From the NCBI GenBank assembly GCA_963921275.4, contig OZ001293.3, forward strand, positions 5,376,001-5,440,000: a stretch of DNA of 64,000 nucleotides, written 5' to 3'. Position numbers and translations under genes: made by a program. This stretch comes from an uncultured Hormoscilla sp. (GTDB lineage Bacteria > Cyanobacteriota > Cyanobacteriia > Cyanobacteriales > Desertifilaceae). Of the stretch, positions 20,850-63,648 are shown in pieces. Below the pieces are notes generated by a model. That model saw only the letters and a list, made by a program, of their open reading frames with translations. It did no database searches and had not been told where the DNA came from. Position 1 is the first letter of the stretch. Each line of letters opens with the position of its first letter.

Positions 20850-20951
20850 GTCATTGCGAGGGGGGCGCCTCATCTGTAACTGTGGTAAGCAAAACTATCA
20901 GACCCCCCCGAAGCAATCTCCTGCCCAGCGCTCGGGAGATTGCTTTGGGGG
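20850..20951. repeat. Cruciform GTCATTGCGAG repeat, copy A (right arm lost)
   Basis: GTCATTGCGAGGGGGG-37 nt-CCCCCCCGAAGCAATCTCC...GGAGATTGCTTTGGGGG. Confidence 0.8.
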
Positions 20952-20961
20952 TGTTACTCTT

Positions 20962-21300
20962 AGACCTCTTCAAAATCGAATTTCTTGCTATGCTTAGGTT
21001 TCAAGGCTCATCTCACATACTCACATTTGTGACCTCCACGACAACATCAGAGTTTGATTTAGTTTCTGTCAATAAATAACTCCAAAGATGGTATTGATTA
21101 ACATTGAACTTCTGAGCACTATCATCGAAATCTACTACTTCTAAAATTAAGGCTCCAATTCTAAATCTTACTAATCCACAAATTTTGAAATTATTGAAGC
21201 ATATTTTTCCGGTTTTAAACGGAACCTTTCACTGGCTACTCGAAATATTTTTACTAATCTGATTACATGTTCTACAAAGACCCTTAAAGATGAAAATTAA
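20962..21300 (-). mobile_element. IS end remnant homologous to the left part of the 24778-25792 element
   Basis: AGACCTCTTCAAAA end; encodes NQYHLWSYLLT versus NQYHLWSSLLT. Confidence 0.55.
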
Positions 21301-21309
21301 TATCAGCCT

Positions 21310-21702
21310 TCAGCTTTCCGAACAGCTTAAATCCGGAATTAACTCTAGCACAGTTTTTTGAATGAAATCGCGCTGATAAAAATCTCGATCGACAATTTCT
21401 CGATTCCATACCACAATATCTAAATCTATACAGCGCGGTCCATTCTTATTTTCTGTTTTCACCCTCCCCATGTCAATTTCAATTTGTTTGAGCTTTTCGC
21501 GCAGAGTTTGGCGACTATCTTCCGTCTGGATAAGATATGCACCATTCATAAAATCTGGCTGTTCCGTAAACCCGATCGGTCTAGTTCGGTAAAACTGAGA
21601 TTGCTTGACAAACTTAGATTTTTCCGATATCTTCTTCCTAGCGATCTCAATGTTAATTTCTGGATCTATATTAGAGCCAACACTAATTATCACTTCATTC
21701 AT
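21310..21702 (-). CDS. folK: 6-hydroxymethyl-7,8-dihydropterin pyrophosphokinase
   Basis: SVGSNI, QPDFMN, GPRCIDLDIV. Confidence 0.92.
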   Translation of the reverse strand: MNEVIISVGSNIDPEINIEIARKKISEKSKFVKQSQFYRTRPIGFTEQPDFMNGAYLIQTEDSRQTLREKLKQIEIDMGRVKTENKNGPRCIDLDIVVWNREIVDRDFYQRDFIQKTVLELIPDLSCSES

Positions 21703-22118
21703 CTGGTCGCCTTCAATTTAATAGAAACCTAATCAGCAAATCGCAAAGCAAAAGGTTTATCCACTTTCACTTTTGCCCAAACGATGAGATGATTTTCCAT
21801 GACAATATCTAAAATCATTTGAGCGAGAGTTTCTAGCAAATTACAATCGCTTTTTTCCACCAGATTTATTACCTGCTTCGCAATCGTTTTATAGTTGACT
21901 GTATCTTCAACTATATCAGTTTGCGCCGCTTTGCCTACCTTAAACTTCGCTTTGATATTAACGATCACATCTTGCTTATTTTTCCTTTCCCAATCATTAA
22001 ATCCAATTACCGTTCTGAGCCTTAAATTTTCGATCTCGAACACGGCAAAATCCACATAATTATTGTCTTCTTTTTTACTTTTTACTTCTCTTTTTAAGGT
22101 TGACATGCTATTAGTCAT
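21699..22118 (-). pseudogene. folX: FolX/FolB-family dihydroneopterin epimerase/aldolase with a premature TAG 10 codons before the end
   Basis: NLRLRTVIG, VNYKTI, LLETLA, DKPFALRFAD*VSIKLKATR; the natural TGA overlaps the folK ATG. Confidence 0.75.
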
Positions 22119-22182
22119 TGCTCTTCCTTTTTTACAGACAATTAAAGTTCACGACTTCATATTCATTACAACTGGTAACAGT

Positions 22183-22890
22183 TTATAAATGTTGACCTCC
22201 ATCGACAAATAACAGCTGCCCAGTCACAAAATCATTCTCCAACAAATATATCATAGCTTGACAAATTTGCTTTACATTTCCTTGCTGACACATTGGCAGT
22301 TTTTGTTTTAACTTGTCTAGATAATCCTGACTTGCCCCTTCTGGTGCTAAAATAAATCCCGGTGCGATGCCATTAACTCGAATATCGGGAGCTAACTCCA
22401 AAGCTGCCATTGAGGTTAAATCCGCCAGAGATTTCTTAGCTAAAGTATAAGCAGCATAGGTATAATCATTCTTGCTCATGCGAGTGTCTATAATGTTGAT
22501 AATATTTCCTGTGCCAACAAAGCGAGCAAAATCCCGGATTAAGAAGAAAGGCGCTTTCAGGTTAACCGCCAAGTGACGATCGAACAACTCCATCTCCGTA
22601 TTTTTTATAGTTGCTGGTTCAAATATTGAGGCATTATTGACCAATACTTCTAGATCCTGAAAGTCGGCTTTCACTCTTCCCAATAGGTTAATTATATCCC
22701 GATCTCGCTCTATATTTGCCTGATAAATTTTACAGGTTCTACCCTGAGACTCGATCTGGACACGTAACCTCTCTGCACTGGCGCTGGAACTATGATAATG
22801 AATTGCTAAATCATACCCCAATAAAGCCAACTCTTGGGCGATCGCTCTCCCAATGCGTCTGACGCCACCTGTAACCAAAGCGCAAGCCAT
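22183..22890 (-). CDS. Pteridine reductase/FolM-like short-chain dehydrogenase
   Basis: TGGVRRIG, NNAS.F, YTLAK, DGG; lies in the pterin cluster. Confidence 0.85.
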   Translation of the reverse strand: MACALVTGGVRRIGRAIAQELALLGYDLAIHYHSSSASAERLRVQIESQGRTCKIYQANIERDRDIINLLGRVKADFQDLEVLVNNASIFEPATIKNTEMELFDRHLAVNLKAPFFLIRDFARFVGTGNIINIIDTRMSKNDYTYAAYTLAKKSLADLTSMAALELAPDIRVNGIAPGFILAPEGASQDYLDKLKQKLPMCQQGNVKQICQAMIYLLENDFVTGQLLFVDGGQHL

Positions 22891-23041
22891 ATAGTTTCTA
22901 TTTTCGCCTCTTTGTTATTTAGCATAAATTCTAACATAACCGATCGCAGCCTGCTTTGGGATCTAATTGTCACAAAACTTAACAAAAGCGAGGGACATCG
23001 GTCAGGAACCCTTTCCCTTTTCCCCAGCCCCAAATTACCAG

Positions 23042-24097
23042 TCACCGGTCACAAGCAGCAGTTTCTAATTGATTCTGAATTTCCATCGCTTTGCTAAAAC
23101 AGGCGATCGCCTCCTGATACTGTTGCAAACCCGCCAGGGCCGTCCCGCGACTGCGCCAAGATTCATAATCCTGGGGGTTGGAGGCGATCGCCCGGTCGTA
23201 GGAAGCGATCGCCTCTTGATACTGTTGCATTTTTTCCAGAACGACACCGCGACTGCGCCAAATTTGCGGGTAGTCTGGTTTGAGAGCAACTACTCGGTCG
23301 TAACAGGCGATCGCCTTTTCATAGCGCTGACTTTTGGACAGCAACACCCCCCGATCGTACCACAATTGGCAGTCATCGGGTCGAATAGCAGTAGCTTTGC
23401 CATAGGAAACCAATGCTTCCGAATAGCGTTGCAATCTTTCCAAAGCCTTACCTCGTTCGTGCCAGAGTTCGTACTTGCCTGGTTCCAGAGAAATTGCCCG
23501 ATCGTAGGAAGCGATCGCCTCAGCATCCCGTTGCAAATTTTCCAATACCAACCCTCGGCTATACCAAACCTGATATTTTTCTGGTTCGATCGCAATAGCC
23601 TTATCGTAGTCTGTTAGAGCCGACTCGTAATCTTGTAATCTTGCCAATACATTCCCTCTATTATACCACGCATTATAGCAATCAGGTTTAATTTTTATTG
23701 CCCGGTCATAAATTGCGATCGCCTGCTCGTATTTTTCTTCAAAAGCCATACTTTTTGCTTGGGCGACCAAATTATCAGCCAAATTTTTATTTCTCGGCTC
23801 ATTTAATTTCATTGCTGGCATAAAAACATCGGGAGGCGCTAGATAATTTTCAGTTGATTCTAACTGATAGACTTGCTCCTGAATAATTTTGCCCACTTGC
23901 TCTTGAAAGCTAATGCCCAATTCTTCAATTTGCTGCCTAATTTGCTGTTTGAAATCATTGATATTGTCAGCATAATGATTGAATTCTTGCCACTTTGGTT
24001 TGATACCGCTCACATTTCTCTCTCTTTGAGCAGCATCTATTTGTTGGTGTGAGCACTTCAATATCTTCCGAGGCATGCTCATACGAAGAGTTCCCAC
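23042..24097 (-). CDS. Tetratricopeptide-repeat protein (5' region possibly disrupted)
   Basis: About 7 TPRs of the W..RG..L..L..Y.EAIASYDRAI type. Confidence 0.85.
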   Translation of the reverse strand: MGTLRMSMPRKILKCSHQQIDAAQRERNVSGIKPKWQEFNHYADNINDFKQQIRQQIEELGISFQEQVGKIIQEQVYQLESTENYLAPPDVFMPAMKLNEPRNKNLADNLVAQAKSMAFEEKYEQAIAIYDRAIKIKPDCYNAWYNRGNVLARLQDYESALTDYDKAIAIEPEKYQVWYSRGLVLENLQRDAEAIASYDRAISLEPGKYELWHERGKALERLQRYSEALVSYGKATAIRPDDCQLWYDRGVLLSKSQRYEKAIACYDRVVALKPDYPQIWRSRGVVLEKMQQYQEAIASYDRAIASNPQDYESWRSRGTALAGLQQYQEAIACFSKAMEIQNQLETAACDR

Positions 24098-24514
24098 TCA
24101 GCAACAAGCAACATTTCTCCAGATAGGGGCTCCACTGGCTCTAGGGCTTCACATCGAAATAAGTCGCTTGCTGGATGTGATTTTGAGCTTGCCCAAAATG
24201 CTGTGCCCGGGTTCTGGAGCGCCCTGCGGTAGTGCCACTAATGCTTTGGATAAAAAAAGGGCAATTTCTGGACTGACGTATTGGAGCAACTGCTGGCGGG
24301 CGGTGGCTTCCAGCCCTTCAAGCGTTTCCAATTGTTCAGGAACAGTTGCACTTAGCCTCTTCATACAACAAGACGGCTAGAGCTTGGGCTATAGGCTTGA
24401 ATTTTGGCCAACTTCTCAGGATTCATAGTTTAAGAGCGTCCAAATGTTTAGGGATTATCTCAGTCTAACACCATCTTGTCAGTTCATAAACTCAGCAAAA
24501 ATACTCATTACCAA

Positions 24515-24556
24515 ACTGGGATGCACCCAGCTGCGGGGTGCATCTCACTTTTGCAT
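24515..24556. mobile_element. Abutting IS/MITE ends (GGGTGCATC-type)
   Basis: ACTGGGATGCACCC followed by GGGTGCATCTCACTTTTGCA. Confidence 0.45.
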
Positions 24557-24777
24557 CTGTGACCTATCATAGACTTTTATCTATGATAAAATTTATTGGC
24601 TTTTGCCAAGGATGCATCTTACTTTTGCAAAAACATCATGTAGAAAGGGCCCCATTTATATAAGCACAACGTCAAGAAAGTATTTGGGGAAGGTTGGATA
24701 TATTCCATTGAGCCCCTGAAATTTTTATCCGTGTTCCCATACGTTTAATCACTGATTCTATTGAACCAGAACCGATA

Positions 24778-25792
24778 AGACATCTCCAAAAATAAAACCC
24801 TTGTCAGCTCTGGGTTTTAAGCTCTACCTCCCATGCTCACATATGTTACTCAAACGGCAGAATCTGGGTTTGATATATTTCCTGTTAATAAAGAGCTCCA
24901 AAGGTGGTACTGGTTAATCTCAAGTTTTTCAGAGCTATCAACAGATTCTAATACTTCTAAAATTCGCGCAACCAACCCAACTTTTGTCGAAATTACCGAT
25001 TCATATTTATCAATATTTAACCGAAATCGCTCGCTGGCAACCCGGAAAAATTTTACCAATGACTTGTTCAACGAAAACGGGAAGAAAAATCTCTATTTTC
25101 TTCTTTTTGTTTAGCTGTTAATTCCTGTTTTTTCGGTTGTTTTTATTTGAGGTTCTCCAATATAGGCTTATCTCTGCAAAAATTTGATCTGGATCGAAAA
25201 CGACGCTCGCAAGATTTATATCGCTTGCCGAGCCTCTTTCTCCAGATACAACATCGACAATATCTGCACGCTACCAGGTAAAACAATTAATTGATTTTTC
25301 AAAGTATTTCTTCTTACCTGAGTAAAACTTTTTCTGCTCTTCATAGTCCTTAGGTCTTGGTATGGCTTGCGCTATCGACTATCAACTCATATTCTGTGTT
25401 TGGATAAATATTCTTCATCTTCTCCATTTTTTTTGTTCAAGTAAACGGCAAAAGATCTTGCCAATAATTAAAAATATCATTAGCTTTCACGCAAAAAGTA
25501 TACCCAATACTTGGAATGTTAATCCTTGACACATCAAAGTTTATTTGATCTTCTACTAATAATTTAGGTTTCGCCCCCACGAGGTATCAATCTAGTTTTG
25601 TGTTCTTCCACCTTTTCTTTATGATTTTTATCCAACAGCAATTGCAATAAGTTGTATTAAGTTTTCATAGCTGATACCGATGAGCCGTTTTGCTTCTTTA
25701 GGCTTGGCTTGCAAATATGTCCAGGTAATACTCGTCACAAAATTAAATTTTCAAATCTTATTATAGCATAAATTTCTATTTTGGAGATGTCT
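24778..25792 (-). mobile_element. Degenerate IS (IS5/IS4-like transposase remnant)
   Basis: TIRs AGACATCTCCAAAA / TTTTGGAGATGTCT; YEEQKKFYSGKKKY motif; many stops. Confidence 0.75.
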
Positions 25793-26106
25793 AGAAAACT
25801 CACCTAACTGATAATACTGATAATCAATTATTCGAGAACGATGTTTTTCCAAATAATTACATAAATTATGAGTTTCTTTTTGATCCGATTGAATAATAGT
25901 ATTGTTTCATCAACTTTTCCCGACCAGAGGAGATTTTTAGCTTTTTTTATCCTCGTAGCCTCCTACTTTATGAAGATTTTCCTTGAGATGATACCAATCT
26001 AATATTTCTCTTCTCTTGCCTGGTTCGCCTATCTGTTTAAATAATTTCCAAATTCCTGCATGTCCATCTCCTAGACAATAAAATGGAGCCAAAAGTTTTT
26101 GACAAT

Positions 26107-27169
26107 TTACCCAGTTGGCTTGAAAAAATGCTCCGCAATATATCCCACTGACTGCTTTATAATCTTTCCATTCACAAGCTTGTCCTTTTTCTTCTGTTCT
26201 AATCCTTGCTTTTCCTCCAGGCGACTTCTTTCACTCCCAATTTCGAGAAACTGACGGTGACAATCTTTACAAATCAAATAAGGTTTACCTAGTCTATGAC
26301 CATTTTTATTAGGGCGTGTCATCAGTTAGAGAAAGAGATGAACCGAAGAGAGGGAAACAGAGAGAAAAATGCGCAGAGAAAGCACTTCTTCGATGACCAG
26401 TGGGAAAAAATCAAGGATTTCCTACCGGGGAGAGACGGCCATGTAGGAGGAACGGCCAAAAATAATCGACTGTTTGTTGAAGCAGTGTCGTATCGGTATA
26501 GAGCGGGAATCCCGCTCTCGAGACCTACCCGAAAGGTTTGGAGACTAAAGAAGTAGTACATACGAGATTTAGCCGATGGAACATTCATGTTCTGTGTAGG
26601 AAAGGATCTTCTTTGTGTTGGCGTAAGACGCCGATAAGGAGTATGGGATGATTGATTCGACAATATTTTGAATGAGAGAATTTTGAATGAGAGAATTTTG
26701 AATGAGAGAATTGCTTAAGGAAGTCGAGGAGGATTAAGTACTTTGATTCATGCCACTTGTGACCCTCTTATTAATCTCACAGGCTTCTTTTTGACGAGAG
26801 GACAAGCCCACGTTCTTGATGGCGCAGATGTCCTCCTTGAAAAGCTTGAAGCATAGGCAAGAAGAGCGGATAAAGCTTATGATGCTGATGAGCGGGTCCG
26901 CCAAAAACTCCAAGCTCAAGGTTGCACAGCGGTCATTCCCTCCAAGGTGAAGTGCCAAGTTCCTTATCAGAAGCGACAAGCACCTCTACAAGGCTCGCCA
27001 TCTGCGCCAAAAACTTTTTTGCCAAACTCGAGCAGTATCGCGCTATTGCTACCCGTTATGATCAAACCGCTCGTAACTTTTTAGGGGCGATTTATCTGGC
27101 TGCTTCTGTCGTCTGGCTTAACTGATGACACACCCTAATTTTTTCAGAACCACATCGGGGACATTTCAT
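26107..27169 (-). pseudogene. IS1-like InsA zinc-ribbon gene interrupted by IS5
   Basis: MKCPRCGSEKI (27138-27169) joins NKNGHRLGKPYLICKDCHRQFLE across the IS5. Confidence 0.65.
26311..27136 (+). mobile_element. IS5-family (IS427-like) element, degenerate
   Basis: TIRs AGGGCGTGTCATCAGTT / AACTGATGACACACCCT; DDQWEKIKDFLPG; RAIATRYDQTARNFL. Confidence 0.9.
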
Positions 27170-27327
27170 TTTCAACTCCTTTAACTAAAGTATTCGCCTT
27201 ACACTCCATTATAGCACTAATTGTGACTAATGGGTAAAAGTCCCTCATCTTAACTATAAATTCTCCCTGAAAAATTGCAGATTATAATAATATGCATTAA
27301 CCTATCATCCCAAAAATGTGCAACGCC

Positions 27328-28238: not shown

Positions 28239-28293
28239 TTGTTTTACGGTTGGAACCATCCTTATGGGTATTCTATCACTAAAACTATGACAT

Positions 28294-29130: not shown

Positions 29131-29418
29131 AAATGGTTGCTTGTGAATGGTAACTACTCGTTGGCAGTCTCGGGCTGGGAACGATGATTGAGAGGCAGAG
29201 CCTCCAGTTTATGATAGCTAGGAAATGATTATACCTTGATGTCTCTGGGGTAGTGCGAATAGCGCGTCCCCTCTGGGAGACATCGAAGTTGGCAGTCTCG
29301 GGCTGGGAACGATTATTTGACCAGTCGCGTTTGAAACCTTGGTGGTAAACTGCCAGATAGCTCTCCCAGCGCAGGATTGGCATAATTTTCTACCTCCATC
29401 AACTATTAAAACAGCCTC

Positions 29419-29858
29419 TTACGTTGGTAGCCCATACAACCAGTTAGTTCGATATAAAGTCAGCACCCATTTATGATGACTCAGACCTAGAAAATTTACT
29501 ATAACTTTAGCATGAGACGATTCGTCAATCTTGAATGATTTAAAAAACATTTGCAGACGTTTATAATTAGAATCAATTTGAGCTTTTCCAGAAAAAGCTG
29601 TCGCAATTTGAACCAAATTTACAGTTTTTACAGCAAATAAAGCTATCAAAAAATTAGACAAGAAGTTAATTCTTGCGGCATGCCATTGAAAAATTTATTT
29701 TAATTCTTTTGAGAGTAAATCAATATGACTCATAATTACAGGTTATGTATGAGGACTTATTCTATCCTAGCATAAGTCACGTAGTAATGTCAAGGTTTTA
29801 CTTGATGTCGCTTGAAATCATTTATTGGTATGGGTTGAGCGCGTTTTGTCCTGTACTG
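29419..29858 (-). mobile_element. IS4-family transposase 5' fragment with IS end
   Basis: FLIALFAVKTVNL...SNYKRLQ...RTNW. Confidence 0.75.
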
Positions 29859-29997: not shown

Positions 29998-30866
29998 GTG
30001 CGATTCGTTCTAGCCTAACGTGGTCAAACACGGAACGCTAGCCCGGTTTCATTAGCCGGGAACTCTGACCGCATGGGGGTTAAATTCCCCTCCCCCCAGG
30101 TACGGGGGTGACACCGGTCCTCGGTGCTACGAAGCGACATCATCGTGGTGCTAAGCGAGGACTCAAATGTAGGATAACTGGCAGCCTAAGCCGGTGACGC
30201 CGCTAGGAAAGATATCCAAGGTTAGAGCAGGCAAACATGTGCAAGCCTCGTTATAAGGAACCAGCGAAATAAGGCTATATGCGCTGGCCTAAAAAGGAAA
30301 TGGTAGCTAGTATTAGTTTTAGACTCTGGCTAATATAGTACTCAAATAGCTCCCGGGGTATAGTGTGGACCTAAAGGTATCGCGAAATGTTGTTAGGGAA
30401 CGAAGTAACCTCTCGTGTGCTGTCCATCAGGACAAGTTAGATGTTAAGCGCAAGCCACGGGGGGAGGGATGGCCCAAGAAGCGAATGCCCGGGGTAATTC
30501 CTGGGATAACATCTACAGTAATGTAGATGATGCTGGGTAGCCAGCGCTGACGTGGGTCGGTGATACTAGGAAGCTGCTGGAATGAGTAATCCTAAAAAGC
30601 CACGGAACTAATCCGAAACGCAAGTGGAGGATAAGGTATGGATAACTGGTAAAACTGACTTGAAAATGGTGATACTAACGGTTATCAGAACAACCACTCG
30701 CTAAACCAGGAAAGGGAAGAAAAGACAGGCGGCAAGGGCTAACGGAAGTAATTCCTATTAAGTCTACCTATGAAAAGGGCCTAGTACCCAGTAGCCGGAT
30801 GCGGTGAAAATCGCAAGTCCGGTTCCTCAAGGGAGGGTCGGGAAGCGATTCCCGGCTCGACCCCAT
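29998..30866 (+). ncRNA. ORF-less group II intron, copy 1 (3' end at 30866 or 30868)
   Basis: 5' GTGCG; domain V AGCCGGATGCGGTGAAAATCGCAAGTCCGGTT at 30793; domain VI hairpin with bulged A ending CCCCAT; no RT ORF in domain IV. Confidence 0.92.
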
Positions 30867-42034: not shown

Positions 42035-42557
42035 AGTCGGTTAAAACCGACTTAAAAAAATAGTTTTTAGTACAACAATTTTAGGACTATAATATTGTTA
42101 AAGCCCGATTGCCCAATCGCCAGCCCGCGCAGGCGGGCTTGTAACTGTAGCCGCACCCCTTGTTCCCTGGGGACCGCCTGGGAACGGTGACGGCCCCATT
42201 CCCAGGCAGAGCCGTGGGAACGGGTGACGGCGTTATTCTTCAGCATCGGGGTTACCACCCAATGCCCGTAGCCGAATGGCACTGACGACGAAGGAGTGAA
42301 AAAAAGCTCCAAGGCATGCTAGATAAGGATTATAGCCCTGAAGCCTAGTAAGCTATTACCCATAATCATGCCCAATCGAGCTTAGATTCTCAAGTGTCAA
42401 TTGGCTTCAAAGCAATCGCTTTACCATTCCGACAGGTGCTGCCAGAATCAGACATTCAACAGGTATGCCGAGCAAGAAAACGTCCCTCGTTCGCCATCGA
42501 TTGTTTTCGCCGGTGGTTACCCTGTGGATGTTCTTGCTGTGGATGCAGGTCATCGAT

Positions 42558-43555
42558 ATGGCTGCGCTACCCTATGGGATCAGCCTCTACTCGCACATTA
42601 GCAGTCAGTAAGGTTGTGGCCTGGTGCAGCGGGGGAGCAGGCCCCCATGGCGCAGCTATGGACACGCTTTGCCGGAGGCAAAGCCAGAAAACGTCTACCC
42701 GATCGCGTAGCGTGGCGCAGCCATACGAGTAGTGGAGCGTATGCACGACCTTACCGTACAAAAGCTAGAGCTTGGTCGCTGTAGAACTTCTTTATGGCTG
42801 CGCCCCCAGCGCAGCGCTATGGGTAAAGTGATGAGGGACTGAGGGGGTGAGGGGGTGAGGGGGTGATGAGAAAATGTTAATTTTTCGTTGATTCACAGAT
42901 ATTTTAAAATGTCGGCGTATTATTAATGGACCGATGCTCTAGAAGCTCAAGTTACTGCGAGGGCAGCTATGGCTGCGCCCCCAGGGGAGATATCTCTGCT
43001 CCTTGCTCTTGTCCCAAGGTCCATAGGGCACACAGGAGACATCGCAGCGCTATTGGTGCTAATTAAGAAGTGTGCCTGCTAGATGGCTCTTCCGTGATTA
43101 TGAGCGACACAACATGGCTGCGCCCCAGCGCAGCGCTATCAACAATCTTAAGGCTTATCGGAAACACTTCATACAACTAAAGGGCAGCATCACAAGACAA
43201 TTGCGTGATAATATATTAAATCACGCAATTGTCTTGTGATACTGGGTTGTGGTTTTCGTTTGAGCGCTCTTCGTCTTTATGTTTAGCTTGGATGAAAGTA
43301 TTGATTGCACCATTCTGCAGTTGTGAACTAGCTCCTGCACGACAGACAAAAGTATACAACCAGGAGCAAAAGTGACTGCTCTCAGGGGTAAGAAGTATTG
43401 CTGCGCCACGCTACGCGATAGGTAAGTTAGGTATTGGCGACCAGATTATTAGCCTCTACAAACCCAAAAAACGTCCCAATCACATAAGTGCTCAAGAGTG
43501 GGCAGATTTACCTGATACTGTGCAGGTATGGCTGCGCCCCCAGCAGAGATATCGA
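42558..43555. repeat. Cluster of ~24-27-bp dispersed repeats ATGGCTGCGCC...
   Basis: Copies at ~42558, 42702 (reverse), 42794, 42969, 43114, 43400 and 43528. Confidence 0.75.
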
Positions 43556-43590
43556 AAATGAGGCAACGGCGTCAAGAGTTGAAAGCACAG

Positions 43591-44021
43591 TTACTCAAAT
43601 GATGCAGGCTTAAGGTCAGTGCCATTCGCCCGTAGCCTTTCTGCCAGTCGTGCGGCCTTGGCTTCAGCCTCTTGGGCTCGGGCTTCAGCCTCTTGGGCTT
43701 TGGCTTCAGCCTGTGCAGTTCTTTGTTTTTCCAGTTCGGCTCGTTCCGAACCAGTCAACAACAGATTTCCCTGCAAATCCCACCAACGCAGCCATGGCTG
43801 TGTTTGATTCTGATAGCTTCCCTGCCAGAGTCCCAACTCTACTTCTAAGGACTCGATCGGATAGTGACCCCGTGAGTTGGGCTCCAGCTTCTGATAAACA
43901 AAATCTACCAGGTGATAGACCTCTAACTGGCTATTATCGATCTGAAAGATGCCATAGTAAGGAATCCTGATAATCTTCTCATACACCCAAAACTTGCCCG
44001 GTTTTCGTTTCACCCCTAACC
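43591..44021 (-). pseudogene. Uma2-family endonuclease C-terminal fragment
   Basis: PGKFWVYE.IIRIPYY, ELGLWQG, PWLRWWD; 5' half lost at the IS4 boundary. Confidence 0.85.
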
Positions 44022-47776: not shown

Positions 47777-47965
47777 AGGTTCTACTGCGGTGTTGGTGAC
47801 TGCCAATAAAGTTTTATGATCTATGCCTTGAGATAAACGGGAACCTGTGTAGTTCTAGCGGCAGTAGGCCGGGCCAGTAACCGGAAACGAAAGCTATCGA
47901 AACCTAGGTACCCACCTGGTGCAACCAGGTCAAAAACTGAGGTAAGACGGCACTGCGGTGAACCT
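47777..47965 (+). ncRNA. ssaA: 6S RNA
   Basis: Terminal pairing AGGTTCTACTGCGGTGTTG / CGGCACTGCGGTGAACCT; ACCTGGTGCAACCAGGT hairpin; downstream of purK as known in cyanobacteria; TGcTAAGAT extended -10 upstream. Confidence 0.88.
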
Positions 47966-50508: not shown

Positions 50509-51377
50509 GTGCGATTCGTTCTAGCCTAACGTGGTCAAACACGGAACGCTAGCCCGGTTTCATTAGCCAGGAACTCTGACCGCATGGGGGTTAAATTCCC
50601 CTCCCCCCAGGTACGGGGGTGACACCGGTCCTCGGTGCTACGAAGCGACATCATCGTGGTGCTAAGCGAGGACTCAAATGTAGGATAACTGGCAGCCTAA
50701 GCCGGTGACGCCGCTAGGAAAGATATCCAAGGTTAGAGCAGGCAAACATGTGCAAGCCTCGTTATAAGGAACCAGCGAAATAAGGCTATATGCGCTGGCC
50801 TAAAAAGGAAATGGTAGCTAGTATTAGTTTTAGACTCTGGCTAATATAGTACTCAAATAGCTCCCGGGGTATAGTGTGGACCTAAAGGTATCGCGAAATG
50901 TTGTTAGGGAACGAAGTAACCTCTCGTGTGCTGTCCATCAGGACAAGTTAGATGTTAAGCGCAAGCCACGGGGGGAGGGATGGCCCAAGAAGCGAATGCC
51001 CGGGGTAATTCCTGGGATAACATCTACAGTAATGTAGATGATGCTGGGTAGCCAGCGCTGACGTGGGTCGGTGATACTAGGAAGCTGCTGGAATGAGTAA
51101 TCCTAAAAAGCCACGGAACTAATCCGAAACGCAAGTGGAGGATAAGGTATGGATAACTGGTAAAACTGACTTGAAAATGGTGATACTAACGGTTATCAGA
51201 ACAACCACTCGCTAAACCAGGAAAGGGAAGAAAAGACAGGCGGCAAGGGCTAACGGAAGTAATTCCTATTAAGTCTACCTATGAAAAGGGCCTAGTACCC
51301 AGTAGCCGGATGCGGTGAAAATCGCAAGTCCGGTTCCTCAAGGGAGGGTCGGGAAGCGATTCCCGGCTCGACCCCAT
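50509..51377 (+). ncRNA. ORF-less group II intron, copy 2 (3' end at 51377 or 51379)
   Basis: Same length as copy 1 with one substitution seen by eye; inserted in a REP-like hairpin whose empty form is at ~53540-53590 (reverse). Confidence 0.92.
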
Positions 51378-51447
51378 CCAGCTACACGAACAAAGCCCGC
51401 CTGCGCGGGCTAGATTACTTGCATCATCGATGCTCTCCGGTCGCTTC

Positions 51448-52105
51448 GGGTGTGGTCAAAACCCGTCGATCTAACATGGGCCTTCCCAGTCGTCGGATCC
51501 CCCTTGCGATGTCTCGCGAAGGCCACGCTAAAAGCACTACCCAAGAGACATCGCACCCCCCTTAAAAAGCCTTAAAAAGGGGGGCTTCCATAGCCCCCCC
51601 CCTCGTTCCCTGGCTCTGCCTGGGAACGTAAGGGGGGGTTTGGGGGGGATCCCTATGCAACAAATGCATGACCACACCCGTTCGCAGTTAGGGTACATTC
51701 GCAGTTCGGGCACATTCGCAGTTCGCCCCGACCGGGCAGTTCTAGGGTACTTTTACCTCAACCGGCACCTATTAGCTGCTAACCGGTGCCCCACTGTTGG
51801 GGTTTAAAACCTCTCTGTTGGGGTTTAAAACCTCTCTGTTGGGGTTTAAAACCTCTCTGTTGGGGTTTAAAACCTCTCTGTTGGGGTTTAAAACCTCTCT
51901 ATTTTGGTTTTAAACCTCTCCATTGGGGTTTTAAACCTCTCCATTGGGGTTTTAAACCGGTGTGGTCTTGCGCACGTTGGCAACCGTTCACCGTGAGCTG
52001 TAAGCCGTTCGCCGTGAGCTGCGAGGGAGTTCCCCGTTTCCTGTGAGCCGTTCGCCGTTCTCCGTTAAGAGTTCCCCACTAATACAACCACTTTTGACCA
52101 CACCC
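51448..52105. mobile_element. 658-bp non-autonomous element with 14-bp TIRs and 9-bp TSD
   Basis: GGGTGTGGTCAAAA / TTTTGACCACACCC; GGTCGCTTC duplicated at 51439-51447 and 52106-52114. Confidence 0.9.
51794..51958. repeat. 21-bp tandem repeat, 8 units
   Basis: CTGTTGGGGTTTAAAACCTCT five times plus three variants. Confidence 0.95.
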
Positions 52106-54263: not shown

Positions 54264-54365
54264 AATTTTCTGCTTGTTGGCTGAGTTGTTTACTTTTCTT
54301 AATATTCTAATATACAAAGGCTGTCATGGGGGCGGGCCCAATACTTCAAGGTTTTGCATTTTAGA

Positions 54366-54576
54366 TGTCATTGCGAGGGGGGGTACGTAGCGATTAACTT
54401 ATGATCGACCGAGTTAACCCCCCCGTTAGCGCAGCGGCCCGACGCCAGGAGGGCTAGCAATCGAGACGCCGACGCCAAAGCGCTCTTCCTCTCATACAGG
54501 GTGAGGGGATTGCTTCGGGGGGAGATCCTGGTGGCGAACCCCATAATGTTAGTTTGTATCCCCCCTCGCAATGACA
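54366..54576. repeat. Cruciform GTCATTGCGAG repeat, copy B
   Basis: TGTCATTGCGAG...CTCGCAATGACA termini; 34- and 37-nt loops; small insertions in the centre. Confidence 0.85.
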
Positions 54577-54581
54577 AATTA

Positions 54582-55565
54582 TTAACCGAGAAGTATTGGG
54601 GGCGGGGCCACTGTACTGAGGACAGTCATGGGACCGCAATCTTTGAGGATCTGCATTTGCTGCTGGTTGCGGACTAGCAGGGCCCCAGCAAATCCCAGGG
54701 AGTTAACTGAAATTGATTGGAAATCTTCGCGCGATCGGGGGACGACGAGCATCCATTCCCTGGTAGCGAGGAGATTGTAGGCACCGGATTGCCTGTCGCC
54801 AGTTACCTCTATCCCTACAGCACCTAACAGATTATGATAGCACTGCTGGGTGATTTTAGCAGCCTCTTGGGGGGATTTTACCAGATCGGGGTCTCCCCGG
54901 GCGATCGCATGTCGGAACGGAAAGCTCGGTATCCTGCCCACGGTATCGTCAAATGTCGCCGATGCGATCGCCTCATCGATAGGTGTCTGAGGTCCGTCAC
55001 CGAGGGGCAGGGGGACAATTTGCAAATGCTTGTGTCGCTGACTAGCACCTGCAATTTTCCCACCATTATAAAATGCCAAGCACTCAAATTCAGCCATGCA
55101 AGCCCACATCGCCTCAAAATCATGCTCTGTGAGCCAGGTTTCCTGTTCCTCAAACGAGCGCGTGACTATCAGTATATGACTATCTACAACATTGTATTTA
55201 TTTAACAGACATAGGTGAGTCTCAGAAATGTCAGCAACAAACAGTTCCTCCTCGTAGGAAAGGAAGGGGTTAAATTCCTTACCCGAACTAGCGGTTTTCT
55301 TGTCTTGCTGCTTTTTGGCTGCATCCTTGCGGGCGAGGTTGGACAAGATGCGCACTAAAAAGCGAATACCAGAGTTTTCCACGAACTCGCACTCTGTTGG
55401 AATGGGTTGGAGGGCACCGCAGGCGAGTGCATGGGCGGTGCGTTCAGTTATCTTTTGCCACAAGCTGCCTGGTTGCAGCATCAAGATGTCCCGTGTAATT
55501 GGTTTTGACTCGGACATGGAAGTTCGATCGACTGTACTTGTGCCACTCTTTGATTTTAGCAGCAT
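54582..55565 (-). CDS. ATP adenylyltransferase (Ap4A phosphorylase family)
   Basis: FNPFL.YE, LLNKYNV, FYNGG.IAGASQRHKHLQ, NSLGFAG. Confidence 0.9.
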   Translation of the reverse strand: MLLKSKSGTSTVDRTSMSESKPITRDILMLQPGSLWQKITERTAHALACGALQPIPTECEFVENSGIRFLVRILSNLARKDAAKKQQDKKTASSGKEFNPFLSYEEELFVADISETHLCLLNKYNVVDSHILIVTRSFEEQETWLTEHDFEAMWACMAEFECLAFYNGGKIAGASQRHKHLQIVPLPLGDGPQTPIDEAIASATFDDTVGRIPSFPFRHAIARGDPDLVKSPQEAAKITQQCYHNLLGAVGIEVTGDRQSGAYNLLATREWMLVVPRSREDFQSISVNSLGFAGALLVRNQQQMQILKDCGPMTVLSTVAPPPILLG

Positions 55566-56858: not shown

Positions 56859-56980
56859 GTTCGCTTATGGGTGAATATCAATCATCCATCTTTTATACGA
56901 TAACTCTTTCCCACCCCCCGATTTTTCCAACTTTCTTAATCTTTGCAGCAGTTGCGAGTCGATCGTAGGATGAACCAACA

Positions 56981-57490
56981 CTATTTCAGAACTATCTCCA
57001 TAAATACACAGTACTTTCGATATTCTTGAGGAATCTCACTTTCAGCATATGGCTCTATTTCTTGGAAGCCTAAGGAACGATAAAGCGCTTGTGCTTCTTT
57101 TGTGAAAGGGGTACTGTATAATCTAATTTTTTGGTAACAAATTTGACTAGCTGCGGCCATGATGGCTGTTAATAAAGACCGACCTATCTCTTGGCGGCAA
57201 TATTCATATCTCATGTACATTCTCTTAATCTCACCAACATCTTGACCAATCTTTTTCAGTCCAACGCAACCAACTATTTTCGTCTCATATTCTGCTAGAA
57301 ACAATCTTCCTGCCGGCGGAGCAAATTGATGGAGTTTAGCCATATCCTGCTCTAAGGTCGCCTGCATGTCAAAACTAATCTTAAATTCTCGGATGACCAT
57401 CCCATTAACTTATATCAGATATTCCCAGAACATTTCCTGCACGTGAGATTTATGTGCTTCGGTTTCTGCTTGAATAATCTTCACTTCCAT
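56981..57490 (-). pseudogene. GNAT acetyltransferase with an early in-frame TAA
   Basis: MEVKIIQ...EYLI*VNGMV; GEIKRMY; LYRSLGF. Confidence 0.8.
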
Positions 57491-57751
57491 CTATTACTTC
57501 TGTCCTAGATTGGGTATCTATAGTAGACAACATGAGCGGGCGTTTGTCCCCTTAATCTTAAATTAAGAAACCCGGTAATTCCGGCAAAACCGGGTTTCTG
57601 AGCTACTAGAGAATAGGCCCCGTGCGAAGAATCTCAAGCTCCTGACAAAGTCCGCCGTATTTTTCCCGCTCGCAACCCAAGCAGGCCATCCCCAAGACAG
57701 GGGATAGAGATTGCGATCGTTCCATTCTTGATGTCCTCGCAATCAATAAAA

Positions 57752-58397
57752 TTACAAGTCATAGAGATATTTAAACTAGTTAACAAATATCTGTGCATTT
57801 GGGTGGTTAGGATCTATAATTCGCTCCATAACACCATTATGCAGTTGGCGTCCTGGCGGATCTTGCCATGCTAGCCATGTGTGAATGTAAGCCTTGTCAG
57901 TCTGCTCTTATTTGAACGGCGCACCTTGATGTTTAGCTTCTTGAACTACCGACTGCGTGTAGGTCCACAGTAACTCACCTTGACTGGGAATCATATTAGC
58001 CAAAAACGTCTCAAGCATACCGCTTATCTTGTTATCTGGCAAAATCCAAACCCCGAACTTAACGCCAAAACTGGTGTTATGAATCAAACCTGTTTCCGGT
58101 ATCTGTTCGGGAATATCGGGAATGCTTCTCTTGCATGCATTCCGAATGCTTTGCCATCGACTTGCTGGATATTCGTCAGCATCGACCATTAGTCCTAAAA
58201 CAGAAAGTCCGGAGGCTTTCAACTCGGTATAAATTACGTCTGGATCGAGGATCAGGGTGACGCCACCATAAGATTTGATGTAGACATTCGGATTTTTTTT
58301 CTCTCCAAGAAATGCCATTAGCTTCAATCAATACTGGTATGACTCGCTTATCAGAGTCACCTTCTACTAAGAGCTTCTTTCTGTGCAGACCTGCCAT
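57752..58397 (-). pseudogene. DUF3226-like (TOPRIM-like) protein, broken
   Basis: LLVEGDSD, GLMVDAD, GMLETFL, WQDPPGRQLH; one frameshift and a stop. Confidence 0.75.
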
Positions 58398-58401
58398 ATA
58401 A

Positions 58402-59460
58402 TTAACGCACCTCTATACCACGTTCTGCAGCAATGGCGATTTCCCGTTCATTAAAGACTACCGCAGTTGTCTTGCCTTGCTCTATTCGTTGAATAGTAAT
58501 GCCATGCCGATCTACATTTTCATTGTTAGCGATGCTAGCTAAACTGGTCCAGCAGTCACTGTTATGGGTAGTCGCGAAAACCTGAACATCCAGCTTTATG
58601 GCTATTTCCCAGATGACTCTCCACATGTCAGACATAGTAGTAAAGTGAAGTCCACTGTCGATCTCGTCAACCAGTAACACTCCTCCTTGGGTGCATAGGA
58701 TCGCGAGTACGAGTCCCAGCATCCGCCAGACCCCATCTCCCATACTACCGATCGGTATGGGTTGGTTGCGATCGGAGCATCGTACCAAAAAACCACCGCG
58801 TTCTCTCCGTTCCCTAGTGCTATACCGAGATTTATCAGGACCAACTGAAGCGATGCGCTCAATTGTGGGTTCGATCGCCTGAAGCGTCTAGATCGCGATC
58901 GCCTCTTCGGGGGTCAATACAACCCGATCGAACATAGCAATAAGATTCGCTACTTCTAAGGAACACGGGGTTCAGAATTGCGTCTTCGTCACGCTGCCAA
59001 GTTTCCGCCACTTTCGGATATAATTGGTAGAAAGACCTGCACGGGGTTATCAAGGCAGCTTGATATCTTCTTCCACTTCCTGTCCAGTCCAGTTAACAAC
59101 CAGATTTAGTTCTCCTAAGTCTCTATCCTCATCCCAGTTTACTTGTTCGGACTGTTCTATGGGATGAATTGATGCCACCAGCTTCTCCTGATAGTTGCTA
59201 TGCACTCCCACTATCGATAATTTCCTGCCTGGTGCGGTATCCTGTCCGTAAAAAAGGTGACGAATGTCCAATTCCAAAGCGCCATTTTTCCTACTGTCTG
59301 TCTCAGTCTACCAATACTCTCCTCGGTAAGTCATTAACCGCTGAAGTGAAACCATATACGTGCGGAAGCAGAGGATTTGGATTGCTTCTAAAATCGAAGT
59401 TTTTCCGCTATTATCGTTCACCCCGATGGCAAGTGAATCTCTGGATGCATGCCACAGACT
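58402..59460 (-). pseudogene. AAA/ABC-type ATPase, fragmented
   Basis: NSGKTSILEAI, SMGDG, LLVDEIDSGLH, ATTH. Confidence 0.8.
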
Positions 59461-59748
59461 AACCTAGGATTTACGTAAGCGCTGACTACAAGAGTTCAAA
59501 GAAAAACTAGAGGCGACTCGCCTCTATTCGCAAAGGTGCAAAATGTAGTATATTTATTGTCAAGTCATCCTTAAAAAGCGGCAACTATCCTGGGAAATAT
59601 TTCCTCCGGGATATATTGTCCGATCGCCCCATAGATTGGCTGTATATGATAGAATATCATCAACATTTATAGTTTAAGCTATACTCGCAAAGGGATTGCG
59701 CTGCGCGCACGCTACGCGAACGACTTGCGCTTTTTTGCTAGATTGAAT

Positions 59749-59906
59749 GTGTCATTGCGAGGGGGGCCAACGCGAGATTACCTTGCACTCACGCGGCCAG
59801 TCCCCCGAAGCAATCTCCGGCGGTCGTGCCCTTTAGGAGATTGCTTCGGGGGGAGTCACTCAAGAGGCACAAGGATCTCTCAATTATCCCCCCCTCGCAA
59901 TGACAC
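59749..59906. repeat. Cruciform GTCATTGCGAG repeat, copy C (complete)
   Basis: All four conserved blocks present; 35- and 34-nt loops. Confidence 0.88.
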
Positions 59907-60115
59907 TATTGACCCCTTAAGCGTAGTTCCTGACCGTTCGGAGTATAGTTGTTAGGGCAATTAAATAACCAGAGGTGAACTGGAATTCAGATTGCTATAC
60001 TGTAACTGGGCATGAAAATTGCTATGGGAAGGCGGCGGACAGTTGGGAAGTGCCTTCAGACTTCGGACTAATTACCGCGTACATATACAGAGAAAGCGTT
60101 CAAAGGAAATAGACC

Positions 60116-61225
60116 ATGACAGAAAACACCAACAACTCTAATGGGAAGCATAATGATACTCAAACTGAAACTAGCGGAGAAAGTCTAACCAAGATTATCC
60201 GCAATCTCAACTCAGATAATAAAGAGGTTCGTAGCTAGGCTTTATGGAAGCTGTTCGCTCTCTGTTGGCATAAGAAAAAACAGTTGGATCGGGACGCATT
60301 TTTCCTGGTCCAATTTCTAGTTGAATGCCTGCAAAAGGAGTCGGAACCAGAAATATTAGACCTAATTCTCTTCCATCTGGCACACTTGGCGACGGTATCT
60401 CCTTGTCGTCCCACGCAGGTTGCTTTAGAATGGGTGCTTGCCACTTATGATGAAGTTTACGAAGGGATTGATATTTACCTGGATTTGCTCGCACACCCCT
60501 CGCCCCAAGTCAGAATTGCGGCAGCATACACCCTGTCCTGCTGCAAGTCAGAGGTCGCCACCAGAATCTGTAGCCAATTGTCTAGACGGTTTGACGGCGA
60601 ACCGGATGTGATGGTAAGATCGACAATCCTGTTGTGTCTGGCATTTCTCAACGAGAAAATCTCTGTGAGTCCTGGGTTATTTGAGTCTATATTGAACTCA
60701 AAGGAAGAAGAAATTGTGAAGCTGGCGGGGGTCTGCGCCCTTGCCTATGTGACCGGGGAAAACATGCCGGACTACGCCTGTGACTTACTCGTGCATCTGT
60801 GGGACAAACCTCAATGGTTGAAAAGACTGGCTAATCACTACGATCGGAGAATGGTAAAAATTCATCGCCAGAGACTCGTGGACTTTATCAGACCTCTCGG
60901 TCATCGGCACGCTGGCCAGACGATCCCGGTTCTCTGGAAAGGGATACAATACTACCAATTTGAGGCGATCGATCTCGCTTTTGCAGAAATAGCTTTCGGC
61001 ATTGAAAAACTCCCAGAGGGAATCAGGATTCATGACTTGACAGATAACCAGCAACTGGTTTTAAGGTTAATTGCAGATACCACCAAAACCGGACAAGAAC
61101 CAATTTATAGGAAACGAACATTAAAGTTTATCGGCATTGGTCAAGTTTCTCCCAGTGATGGGTACTATGCGCGGAAAAAGCTCTTGAGCTTTCTCAATGG
61201 TGCGAAAGTGAAATATGATAAATAG
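60116..61225 (+). pseudogene. HEAT-repeat protein with stops near the N-terminus
   Basis: HPSPQVRIAAAYTL; TAG at 60236. Confidence 0.7.
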
Positions 61226-61310
61226 GAATGAGTCCGAATGGGGAGGCGATCTTGGCATCAAGAAACCCGGGTTTCTAGGCGACCGGTGAAGAGGCAGGAG
61301 GAAATAGACT

Positions 61311-63648
61311 ATGAGCGATCGTCGATTAACGGTATCTGTGAAATTTCCCAATAATGGTAAAGGTTGGTGTTTTTTACTGGCGGATATAGTCAATGATATC
61401 CGCCATCTCGCCTCAGACAATAAAAAGGTTAGGGAGAAGGCTTTATGGGATCTGTTTGAGCTATGCTGGCATCAGGGAACTTTGTATTGGCAAGCAGCTT
61501 TCGTCGCACCATTTCTAATTGAACGCCTCCCACATGAGTCAGAACCAGAGCTATTGGAGATAATTCTGTGGATTTTTGCACCGCTGGCGTGTCGGGAGGC
61601 CCTACTGGTAATACGTCTGAGGAACTCTATTGGGCCCGTGCCACTTATGGGCAAGTTTACAGAGAAATCGATGTTTACCTCGATTTGCTGGAACATTCCT
61701 CGTCCGAAGTTAGAATTGCAGCAATATACATGCTTGCATTCTGTAAGCGAGATGCTGCGATGATTGGCGATAAACTCGGTATAAATTTTCGCAACGAACC
61801 AGAAGAAATGGTGAGAGCAACCATTCCGTATTGTCTGGCATTTATCAGCGACAATACGCCTGTAGATACTATGTTTTTTGAGGAAATATTAAACTCAGAT
61901 GATGCCGAGATTGTGAAACTAGCCGCAGGGAACACTCTGGCCTATGTTGCTGGCGAAAATATGCCGGAGTATGCCTTGTCAATCCTCCAGCGTCTGTGGG
62001 AAAATACTAAGTTAGTGGATAGACTCGCTAAGCATTCCGATCCTATTGAAACAATTCATGACAAGAGATTACTAGACTTTTTGAAGCCTCTTAACGATCG
62101 GCAAATTGCTAAGATTATCCCCAGGATCTGGCAAGAATGGGGTGAATACTACCGCGATTTGGATGCGATCGAACTAGCTTTCGGAGACCTATTTAGGAAA
62201 AAGAAAAAAGCCGAGATCCTTGTTCTCAGGGACTTTCCCAATTTTGAATTTTGAATTTTGAATTTTGAATTGCTTACCCCCCCCTCGCAATGACGCCCTA
62301 TATCCAAAACCTTGAAGTATTGGGACTACCGGGACAAGAACAGCGATGGCGACGATCGTATGCCAGTAGTGCCGTGATTGATATGGCTGCTGATGGGTGG
62401 AAGTGATGCCAACTTGATGCAGTGAGTGCCGGTGCTTTTGGCTTCGGGGACCGGCTAATCCGGGATTGGGGCTGCGCAACAATACTCAAGTTATTCGCTG
62501 CGATATATAGTAGACTTTGGTGTTTATACCTTGGCGGATGATGGTGAAACACAGAATTTGTACGGCTATTTCAGTTGGGAGCCTACAATTGTCGTACAAT
62601 AAGTCTGTTTGCTTGAGCCGGTATAGTAGAGCGCAGAGCTTGTAGGGTGCGCCAGCGAAAGCGTAACGCACCAATTCCTACCACTATCATCTAAGGGCAA
62701 ACCGTTTTTAAAACGGTTTGCCCTTTTGAGAAAGGAGCGATCGCATCCTATAAGTTTCCTAACTTGGCTTGAGAGTACTGGCAAGCCAGATTAATGACCG
62801 TTAAAAAAACGCAAAGCTGCGATCGCTATTTCTCTGGGGATGGAGATGTTGCGATCGCACCCGAGATCTCGACTTGGAGAATTCCAGTCATAACAAAAAT
62901 AGTTACAACTCAGATACAACTCAGATACAACTCAGATACAACTCAGTCGATCTCGAGTTAAACCATTGCTCTCACCTGAAATGTAGGCTTTTCTGGAAAA
63001 ATCTAAGTCATAACGAAAACAGATACAAGTCAGATACAAGTCAGTCATTCTCGGGTTTGAACTCGGGTAGCTGTGGAGGGGTGTGGTCAAAACCAGTTGG
63101 TAAAGAAAAGGTAAAATTATGACGATTTCACTGGTTGATAAGCGGCTCCCGCCCGGCTTTGTATTATATTTACTACATGTAAACAGAAATTTAGTATTAC
63201 GTTCGCTACGATGTAATCTGTCAGCGTCGATCGCGTTTTGTATTATATACTACAAATAATCCGCAAATTTAGTATTACGTTCGCTACGATGTAATCTGTA
63301 AGCGTCGATCGCGTAGGCGTAGCCGTGTGCTCGGCGTCTCCACCGAAGCACTATTCGTACTACCCAGGAGACATCGGCAGCGCAATCCTTTTGGCCAGGA
63401 TATCAACTACTTTTGACCACACCCAGAAAAAACTCCCCGAGGGAACAACCATCCATGACTTGACAGATAGTCAGCAACTTGTGTTAAAGTTGATTGCAGA
63501 TGATACCAGTACTGGACAAGAAAGTCGTTACAGGTATACATTAGAATCGATCGGGATTAGCAGTCCAGTCCATCGAAAGGATGAGTCGTCTGCACGGGAA
63601 AATCTGATGCGCTTTCTCAATGGAGAGAAGCTGGAATATGATAGATAG
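61311..63648 (+). pseudogene. HEAT-repeat paralog, frameshifted and split by a 1.2-kb insertion
   Basis: Similar to the upstream gene throughout; resumes at KKLPEGTTIHDLTD after 63425. Confidence 0.8.
63079..63424. mobile_element. 346-bp element with GGGTGTGGTCAAAA TIRs
   Basis: Same TIRs as 51448-52105 with a different interior. Confidence 0.75.

Follow-up and report, generated by a model that had tools for sequence, protein, structure and literature searches.

Small single-stranded DNA nucleases of the GIY-YIG type, the Ssn proteins (cd10448), have been described together with hairpins termed NTS and SRM; they cut such hairpins, mobility is left as a hypothesis, and the 29 genomes that define the system include no cyanobacterium (Chenal et al. 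2025, PMC11893778). For another class of hairpin, the CGTC-tagged REPs, cyanobacteria were not listed and no dedicated enzyme was found (Di Nocera et al. 2013, PMC3733652). The means by which CGTC-tagged repeats spread is an open question. The repeats considered here come from a window of 64,000 nucleotides from an uncultured Hormoscilla species, in which an earlier note had, rightly, recognized a REP-like class.

Like CGTC-tagged REPs, the repeats of this window carry a CGTC or TGTC tag, form inverted dimers and are intergenic, whereas their loops measure 32-41 nt, compared with published loops of 4-5 bp on stems of 8-9 bp (PMC3733652). With the Ssn/SRM repeats they share an oriented hairpin with a 5′ [C/T]GTC tag, a large number of dispersed copies, and clustering at a single-domain GIY-YIG gene of ~95 aa with Tyr-Tyr-Glu spacing. 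Unlike those repeats they reside inside MITEs, form units of 63-70 nt in which a loop of ~35 nt stays unpaired (the repeats of PMC11893778 measure 20-50 nt), and have a stem type, GTCATTGC...GAAGCAATC, outside the published SRM pattern, which matched 0 of 80 loci, including one (L131) with five long-loop arms. The hairpin motif was not found in 12 of the 14 supplementary files of Chenal et al. (PMC11893778). REPINs and their RAYT partners (Bertels and Rainey 2011, PMC3116915) are similar in their inverted doublets, their long hairpin, and an inner part conserved in length over sequence. They differ in that the insertion footprints seen here are of the DDE type and in that no Y1/HUH gene stands beside the arms; the linked HUH gene envisaged earlier was not borne out, both PF01797 matches in the genome lying more than 7 kb from the nearest listed arm. 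Terminal inverted repeats, target duplications and presence or absence between close relatives recall the cyanobacterial MITEs of IS630 type (TA) and IS4 type (~10 bp), with the difference that several unrelated end types here share a hairpin cargo and that copies are mosaic instead of near-identical. Throughout, we take a TA duplication to be IS630-type and one of ~10 bp to be IS4-type. A literature search that covered few subscription journals found no paper on the long-loop form.

We favour, at roughly three chances in four, a reading in which the long-loop hairpins are the cargo of MITEs, their origin is linked to Ssn-type genes, and their loops are homologous segments that drift and recombine.

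Window copies and their MITE carriers

The coordinates and lengths of all five loops reported earlier, and the lone right end, were reproduced exactly. The scaffold layout held in general, the exception being the left arm at 54367, whose 3′ scaffold contains a micro-insert of ~29 nt (54425-54462) and which does not end in GAAGCAATC. The repeats themselves are real, but their boundaries had been drawn too narrowly, as a larger element with terminal inverted repeats encloses each. The features are listed below, with the present genome (G000) as reference and G001 to G004 as sister genomes.

20806..20962: type II (TA-ended) MITE, cut off inside its second arm; end motif at 20806, complete G001 orthologue (L344) matching to ~20962
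20850..20918, plus strand: long-loop hairpin arm, loop class C; loop 20866-20902 (37 nt), 76% relative at C1:393897, 36/37 identical in G001
54329..54338 (left) and 54599-54608 (right): 10-bp target-site duplication, one mismatch between copies
54339..54598: type I MITE, 260 bp, with the 10-bp duplication; IS4-like by duplication length
54367..54462, plus strand: long-loop arm, class A; loop 54384-54417 (34 nt), 91% relative at C1:521837
54508..54575, minus strand: long-loop arm, class D; loop 54523-54559 (37 nt), 72% relative at C1:5968442
59680..59947: type II MITE, 268 bp including TA at both ends; missing in G002, G003 and G004
59751..59815, plus strand: long-loop arm, class F; loop 59767-59801 (35 nt), 80% relative at C1:6450094
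59839..59904, minus strand: long-loop arm, class B; loop 59854-59887 (34 nt), 85% relative at C1:1584139
62277..62322, minus strand: remnant, one arm end (the lone right end, 62277-62294) plus one type I terminal repeat

The exact long-loop pattern has 43 matches in the reference genome and 0 with a reversed control pattern, and the dimer at 59747-59907 folds at z = -9.7, which places the repeats far beyond chance. The stretch 59694-59904 is unchanged in two sequencing runs of the same organism, X1 and X3. In the remnant at 62277, a 7-nt tandem tract replaces the loop, and no partner end was found between 60000 and 62300.

The enclosing elements have no coding capacity and possess their own terminal inverted repeats; an IS-type end lies no more than 100 nt upstream of 102 out of 122 arms, as compared to 29 of 2000 random positions. 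A 10-bp target duplication flanks 24 of 29 type I MITEs, against 0 of 812 mismatched pairs. For type II copies the TA count is built into the search pattern, and the evidence for TA is instead the empty orthologous site: where the element at 59680-59947 should be, all three sister genomes that matched have a single TA. The site at 54339 is empty in G003 and G004, holds a different insert in G002, and is occupied in G001 by a type I copy at 81% identity; conversely, of 16 sister-genome elements that could be mapped, 7 have an empty site in G000. Target duplications together with empty sites indicate that the MITEs insert as whole units, and we think it very likely that the mobile units are these larger composites, moved by DDE transposases. 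IS4-like and IS630-like enzymes would act in trans on types I and II, respectively, with the hairpins riding as non-coding cargo. Such hitch-hiking is a second route of spread for tagged repeats. Type III ends also bound remnants of IS630 transposase genes. The paired ends and 13 solo-end regions that we read contained no autonomous IS with type I or II ends, and the window copy of type IV gave no family match. An IS4 fragment is located near a type II end at 29998 and may belong to a nested element.

Arms are not confined to one carrier, a class A arm being present in three different MITE end types, and in the other genera inspected they lie outside these MITE ends, from which it follows that they must also spread otherwise. 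Both observations would suit a different arrangement, in our view improbable, in which the dimer itself is a REPIN-like mobile unit, cut out and reinserted by a Ssn-type nuclease that nicks outside both tags; the MITEs would then be invaded hosts and the loop a ruler, its length needed by the enzyme or an intermediate. Three hairpin-less type II MITEs that join cleanly at TG(T/A)CA show just the junctions expected after precise gain or loss of such a unit. However, loop class tracks the MITE arm, the insertion footprints are those of the outer ends, and none of the 3 sites tried yielded a filled/empty pair of the inner unit. At C1:267657, G003 and G004 share the hairpin-less form unchanged, and no filled orthologue of the three hairpin-less MITEs was found in the four congeners searched. 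What has been shown for SsnA, too, is cutting and not joining (PMC11893778).

Loop homology, inheritance and length

A constant loop length of 34-37 nt had been claimed. Genome-wide the range is indeed narrow, though looser than that: among 138 closed arms of G000, 119 have loops of 32-41 nt and 80 of 34-37 nt, five are shorter (15-28 nt), and 14 read longer, being insertions or degenerate ends that the search pattern missed. A further 40 arm heads have no closing arm. Loop uniqueness likewise stood, with 118 of the 119 loops of 32-41 nt distinct and the five window loops only 46-59% identical to each other (scores 0.5-14.5, shuffled mean 8.6), but the proposed unrelatedness did not. One homology network holds 110 of the 119 loops, 109 exceed the best shuffled control score, and all five window loops have relatives of 72-91% identity elsewhere in the genome. 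The loops, which are unstructured, fall into classes that follow the MITE arm, and weak homology extends across genera, a core motif being present in 42 of 96 loops as against a mean of 19 and a maximum of 31 after shuffling. That the loops are homologous, inherited segments is as good as certain.

This homology largely refutes the readings of sequence capture and guide-like RNAs raised in the earlier note, under which, as we take them, each loop would come from host or foreign DNA and program an effector. The number of distinct loops, their CRISPR-spacer size, their lack of structure and the linked nuclease speak for the idea, yet we give it almost no credence. Loops are inherited at most orthologous sites, and a 2-kb IS of G004 carries an identical loop in 12 of 12 copies. 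Searches against phages (2 elements) returned 0 matches at E 10, those against plasmids a best E of 2, and those against viral contigs 0, while 7 of the top 8 host matches above the shuffled level were decayed copies of the element itself. No Rfam family matched, no A-specific mutagenesis was apparent, and SsnA is without RNA binding (PMC11893778). The repeats are not, in other words, a new memory or guide system. The 31 of 93 window ORFs scanned included no cas1-like integrase.

What, then, makes nearly every loop different? At orthologous sites in sister genomes, 10 of 13 loops are at least 92% identical, with flanks at 85-99%. The remaining three (68-85%) and the G001 copy at the 54339 site, with its flanks at 90-94%, reflect conversion or independent insertion and not plain inheritance. 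Multi-base blocks of class A loops are found in nearly all combinations; in G001, a table of 5′ blocks against 3′ blocks has 8 of 9 cells filled for the three commonest types. Left and right loops of dimers are uncorrelated in Mantel tests that are small (n = 9-17) and in which a star-shaped history would likewise yield no correlation. Loop uniqueness likely stems from drift plus shuffling, that is, recombination between copies, and the mosaics would form through gene conversion over short tracts, with the conserved scaffold as anchor. That the nuclease stimulates this shuffling is a tentative proposal, and we lean against it. There were 0 identical arms among 93 sampled in G001 and no near-identical young copies, which is unusual for a recent MITE burst.

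Other sources of diversity were also considered. Hypermutation of loops in place is not supported at the 10 of 13 orthologous loops, and mutagenesis resembling that of diversity-generating retroelements was rejected on change rates of 0.15-0.23 at A and 0.27-0.35 at T. Pairing or co-evolution of the two loops of a dimer is not supported either, own-partner, cross-partner and shuffled scores being equal in all 4 sets examined (p 0.07-0.86); the partial loop pairing in the fold of 59747-59907 is for this reason not general.

A length constraint alone, with length kept and sequence free, had been another of the earlier proposals, and it fits. In eight other genomes all 64 units read have an inner length of 42-48 nt, as seen through a search window of 36-52, and 12 units of one of them (G370) are identical in length at 68% mean identity. 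These lengths, the compensatory stem changes in partner arms of G370 and G265, and the conservation of REPIN spacers in length rather than sequence (PMC3116915) count in favour of a mobile dimer with a loop ruler. Against this, the range was read through that search window, and the spacers adjoining the loops match them in both length stability and divergence. Loop length correlates negatively with G/C-run length (overall rho -0.41; in four classes taken singly, -0.32 to -0.59), a relation that could be a boundary artefact of loop cutting, and we therefore do not count it as demonstrating a ruler. Under the MITE-cargo reading, the length near 35 nt within Hormoscilla is accounted for by inheritance with few indels, and a mild spacing constraint may operate across genera.

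The GIY-YIG gene and copy number

A linked GIY-YIG gene, which the earlier note had advised looking for, does exist, outside the window. In G001 a 95-aa single-domain PF01541 gene is intact (L121:1444-1731, minus strand) and directly follows six long-loop arms; its counterpart in G000, 89% identical, is broken and has a decayed arm upstream. Repeats lie only upstream of the gene in these two genomes, while a GIY-YIG gene of Dapis (L139) has dimers with long-loop arms on both sides. Overall, GTCATTGC...GAAGCAATC hairpins accompany 62 of 80 Ssn-like GIY-YIG genes, spread over many taxa. Tyr8, Tyr19 and Glu66 of the G001 protein have the same spacing as Y6, Y17 and E64 of SsnA (PMC11893778); for this type of protein NCBIfam returned nothing, and PDB only a distant UPF0213 protein. 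The inner hairpin probably descends from a repeat flanking an Ssn-type GIY-YIG gene and, by analogy, a small GIY-YIG ssDNA nuclease probably acts on it; if this enzyme resembles SsnA, it would bind and nick the hairpin as ssDNA. Cleavage by SsnA does not require loop identity (PMC11893778), and a nuclease reading stem and tag would leave the loop sequence largely free. The published pattern misses the kind of hairpin that accompanies these 80 genes, so the number of Ssn specificities has probably been underestimated. A natural substrate with a 35-nt loop would also be relevant to using the enzyme for programmable cutting of ssDNA.

Of 401 genomes of the order, 11 contain hairpins of the long-loop size class, and among these the genus provides a natural contrast: 306 copies in G001, with the gene intact, 43 in G000, with the gene broken, and 13-39 in congeners where the gene was not found, putting G001 at 7 to 24 times its congeners. 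This link between gene and copy number comes from one genome pair, given that 9 of the 11 carriers have no Ssn-like match and that G265 has 267 short hairpins without an Ssn-like gene. That copy number peaks where the gene is intact would agree with a mobile dimer, against which short hairpins evidently amplify well (G265). We also entertain, as an unlikely extension, that a clade of Ssn-type nucleases supplies the mobilising enzyme so far missing for CGTC-type repeats, nicking beside long-loop hairpins, shifting the dimer into MITE families and from one to another, and driving fixed-length loop reshuffling through short-tract conversion, which would make the repeat a self-diversifying non-coding element with a 35-nt ruler.

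The scarcity of the gene among carriers points the other way, to an old passive repeat in which the nuclease has had no role since entry into MITEs and the mosaics reflect ordinary RecA conversion or recurrent mutation. That 10 of 13 orthologous loops change no faster than their flanks, and that no base-specific mutation bias is seen, would agree with this, but in two genera the nuclease gene has long-loop arms clustered right beside it, and G001 stands far above its congeners, and we consider the passive view very improbable. Apart from the role of the nuclease, it overlaps with the explanation we prefer. Short units are scarce in the reference genome, G000 having only 1 exact unit of this kind.

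Homologous loops in the host genome

A genome-wide pattern search of the 7.03-Mb genome of the uncultured Hormoscilla sp. (G000, window at C1:5376001-5440000) returned 178 arm heads, an arm being one hairpin with a loop of about 35 nt between G-run and C-run stems. A closing arm was present in 138, giving loops of 32-41 nt in 119 cases and of 34-37 nt in 80, and the reversed control pattern had no match in G000. Re-reading the sequence confirmed the scaffold and the five window loop lengths of an earlier note. The dimer, two inverted arms, folds as a rod with its loops facing one another (z -9.7); the fold of a single arm is weak (z -0.2 to -1.7), and the loops hold no more structure than their shuffles.

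The earlier note had also described the window loops as looking unrelated to each other and considered sequence capture or guide-like RNAs. They do look unrelated, because each belongs to a different one of the loop classes that we label A-F (A, B, C, D and F), but they are homologues, and each has a relative of 72-91% identity elsewhere in G000. Genome-wide, 118 of 119 loops are distinct, with a median nearest-neighbour identity of 85%; 109 outscore the best shuffled control, and a single homology network, thresholded above the 99.9th percentile of shuffles, unites 110. The nine unlinked loops include three reverse readings of loops counted before. Searches against host, phage, plasmid and viral-contig sequences revealed no external source: two elements had no phage match at E 10, the best plasmid match had an E of 2, viral contigs gave none, and host matches scoring above shuffles were decayed element copies in seven of the top eight. 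The variation is not specific to adenine. With homologous loops and no phage, plasmid or viral source found, both the capture and the guide readings fail.

MITEs as the mobile unit

The mobile unit is larger than the hairpin repeat, namely a MITE, a non-coding mini-transposon carrying the dimer. Four kinds of IS-type ends (our types I-IV) occupy the upstream arm flanks, with an end within 100 nt of 102/122 arms versus 29/2000 random positions. In the window, the arms lie in two of these types:

Window 54339-54598, also 62322: type I MITE, with a 10-bp duplication
Window 59680-59947, also 20806: type II MITE, with TA

The duplication was seen at 24/29 type I pairs and 0/812 controls. The type II site at 59680-59947 is empty, keeping a single TA, in the congeners G002, G003 and G004, and had no match in a fourth, G001. 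We take the 10-bp duplication to indicate IS4-like and TA to indicate IS630-like elements; a search for partner transposases of type I and type II ends found none. Between type III ends there are, in addition, remnants of IS630 transposases. Loop class is tied to the MITE arm: class A goes with one type I end and with types III and IV, class D with the other type I end, and class B and classes C/E/F with the two type II ends, respectively. From sampled stretches of the four congeners we collected 49 elements, 16 of which mapped to G000 by both flanks; their state there was empty for 7 (6 distinct sites, one ambiguous), filled for 7 (5 sites) and other for 2.

Hairpin-less type II MITEs of ~90 bp, joined at TG(T/A)CA, occur at G000:C1:267657 (common to G003 and G004), 2019266 and 5059313. 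The first of two group II intron copies in the window (29998-30297 and 50509-50808) abuts the TA of a type II MITE end; at C1:267745, 5481346 and 6406476, too, a type II end is followed by the start of an intron. Rfam RF00029 matches the window at 30790-30866 and 51301-51377. A 1354-bp element (window 42274-43627) is bounded by terminal repeats of type IV; its frames are decayed and matched no Pfam or NCBIfam family. Type III ends carry another palindromic repeat as well (e.g. G000:C1:2184739), which probably accounts for the isolated Rfam CRISPR-DR28 matches (window 19132-19155 and 51389-51412), rather than an array. The window further contains a broken IS4-family transposase fragment (~29400-29733, minus strand; NF033591, partial) and 6S RNA (RF00013) plus a 21-nt tandem array (47779-47965 and 51768-51977).

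Inheritance and probable reshuffling of loops

At filled orthologous sites, 10/13 loops are 92-100% identical, as are their flanks; of the remaining three, at 68-85%, two lie at window 54339, a site whose G001 copy is as a whole 81% identical. In G004, a type III copy carried inside a 2-kb IS is identical in 12/12 loci (L013-L024); this IS encodes a 458-aa transposase-like ORF, presumably ISKra4-like. The scaffold is often the part that changes at orthologous sites, via small modular swaps. Between G000 and its congeners, these involve a head variant or a 28-29-nt tail insert with loops unchanged (e.g. C1:6695488-6695761, C1:2488383-2488693; window 54425-54462), and they resemble tiny site-specific insertions of the kind labelled SDR.

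Copies within one genome all differ, as in G001, where 93/93 sampled arms (of 306 exact matches) are distinct. Multi-base blocks at the 5′ and 3′ sides of class A loops occur there in 8/9 combinations of the three commonest types (27 loops classified), and in 9/9 with genomes pooled (60 loops). Left and right loops are uncorrelated, as are loop and adjacent spacer (small n). We infer that copies exchange short tracts by conversion. Terminal repeat and hairpin are separated by a spacer that has diverged as much as the loop and is about as stable in length, so no special mechanism is required for the loop within Hormoscilla.

A GIY-YIG gene and the wider distribution

The earlier note had suggested looking for linked GIY-YIG genes, and one was found outside the window:

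G000 C1:5222014-5222277: small GIY-YIG gene, broken by two stops, one of them at codon 56, and by a short deletion

A decayed arm lies upstream of it. The G001 gene is intact (95 aa, 89% identical to the G000 copy) and directly follows six class A arms, three forward and three reverse. Species genomes hold at least 582 relatives of the gene; for 62 of the best 80, a GTCAYTGC...GCAAYC hairpin lies no more than 1.5 kb away, against a chance expectation, by arithmetic, of <0.01 per locus. Hairpins beside these 80 genes are mostly short; the G/C-stem long-loop form occurs at two loci, in G001 and in Dapis, another genus, whose gene has it on both sides. In the G001 protein, Tyr, Tyr and Glu are spaced as in SsnA, the characterised Ssn/SRM nuclease (PMC11893778). 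Since the published SRM pattern matches none of the best 80 loci (L131-L210), we liken the repeat-nuclease pair, which from its sequences may work like Ssn/SRM, to that system, short of counting it a proven member.

In the most likely scenario, several MITE families acquired a long-loop form of an Ssn-type target hairpin and were then spread by DDE transposases; the loops would drift and be reshuffled between copies, with tag, stems and length persisting. Nuclease binding of the hairpins, a nuclease role in shuffling and a length ruler are all putative. Small dispersed repeats are reportedly the subject of Elhai 2008. No description of the long-loop form was found in the literature searched, our comparison drawing on PMC3733652 (CGTC-tagged REPs), PMC11893778 (Ssn nucleases), PMC3116915 (REPINs) and PMC3542288.

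The long-loop pattern occurs in 11/401 genomes of the order, from five families, and in 2/5 further genomes reached through nuclease loci. It also matches 85 metagenome stretches, some of them look-alikes rich in GC or short units that are nested. The GIY-YIG gene, present in 17/401 genomes overall, is found among the 11 long-loop genomes only in G000 and G001, and no arm inspected outside Hormoscilla lies within these MITE ends; both speak against a tight enzyme link. In G265, from another genus, there are 267 exact matches to the short hairpin, many of them arrayed in tandem, and this query gave no Ssn-like match. All 24 units of G370, likewise from another genus, are long and none short, and 12 of the 23 units read share one length at 68% mean identity (35% when shuffled). 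Searched over 36-52 nt, inner lengths fall at 42-48 nt across 64 units of eight genomes, and a weak core motif at loop position 10-11 recurs across genera.
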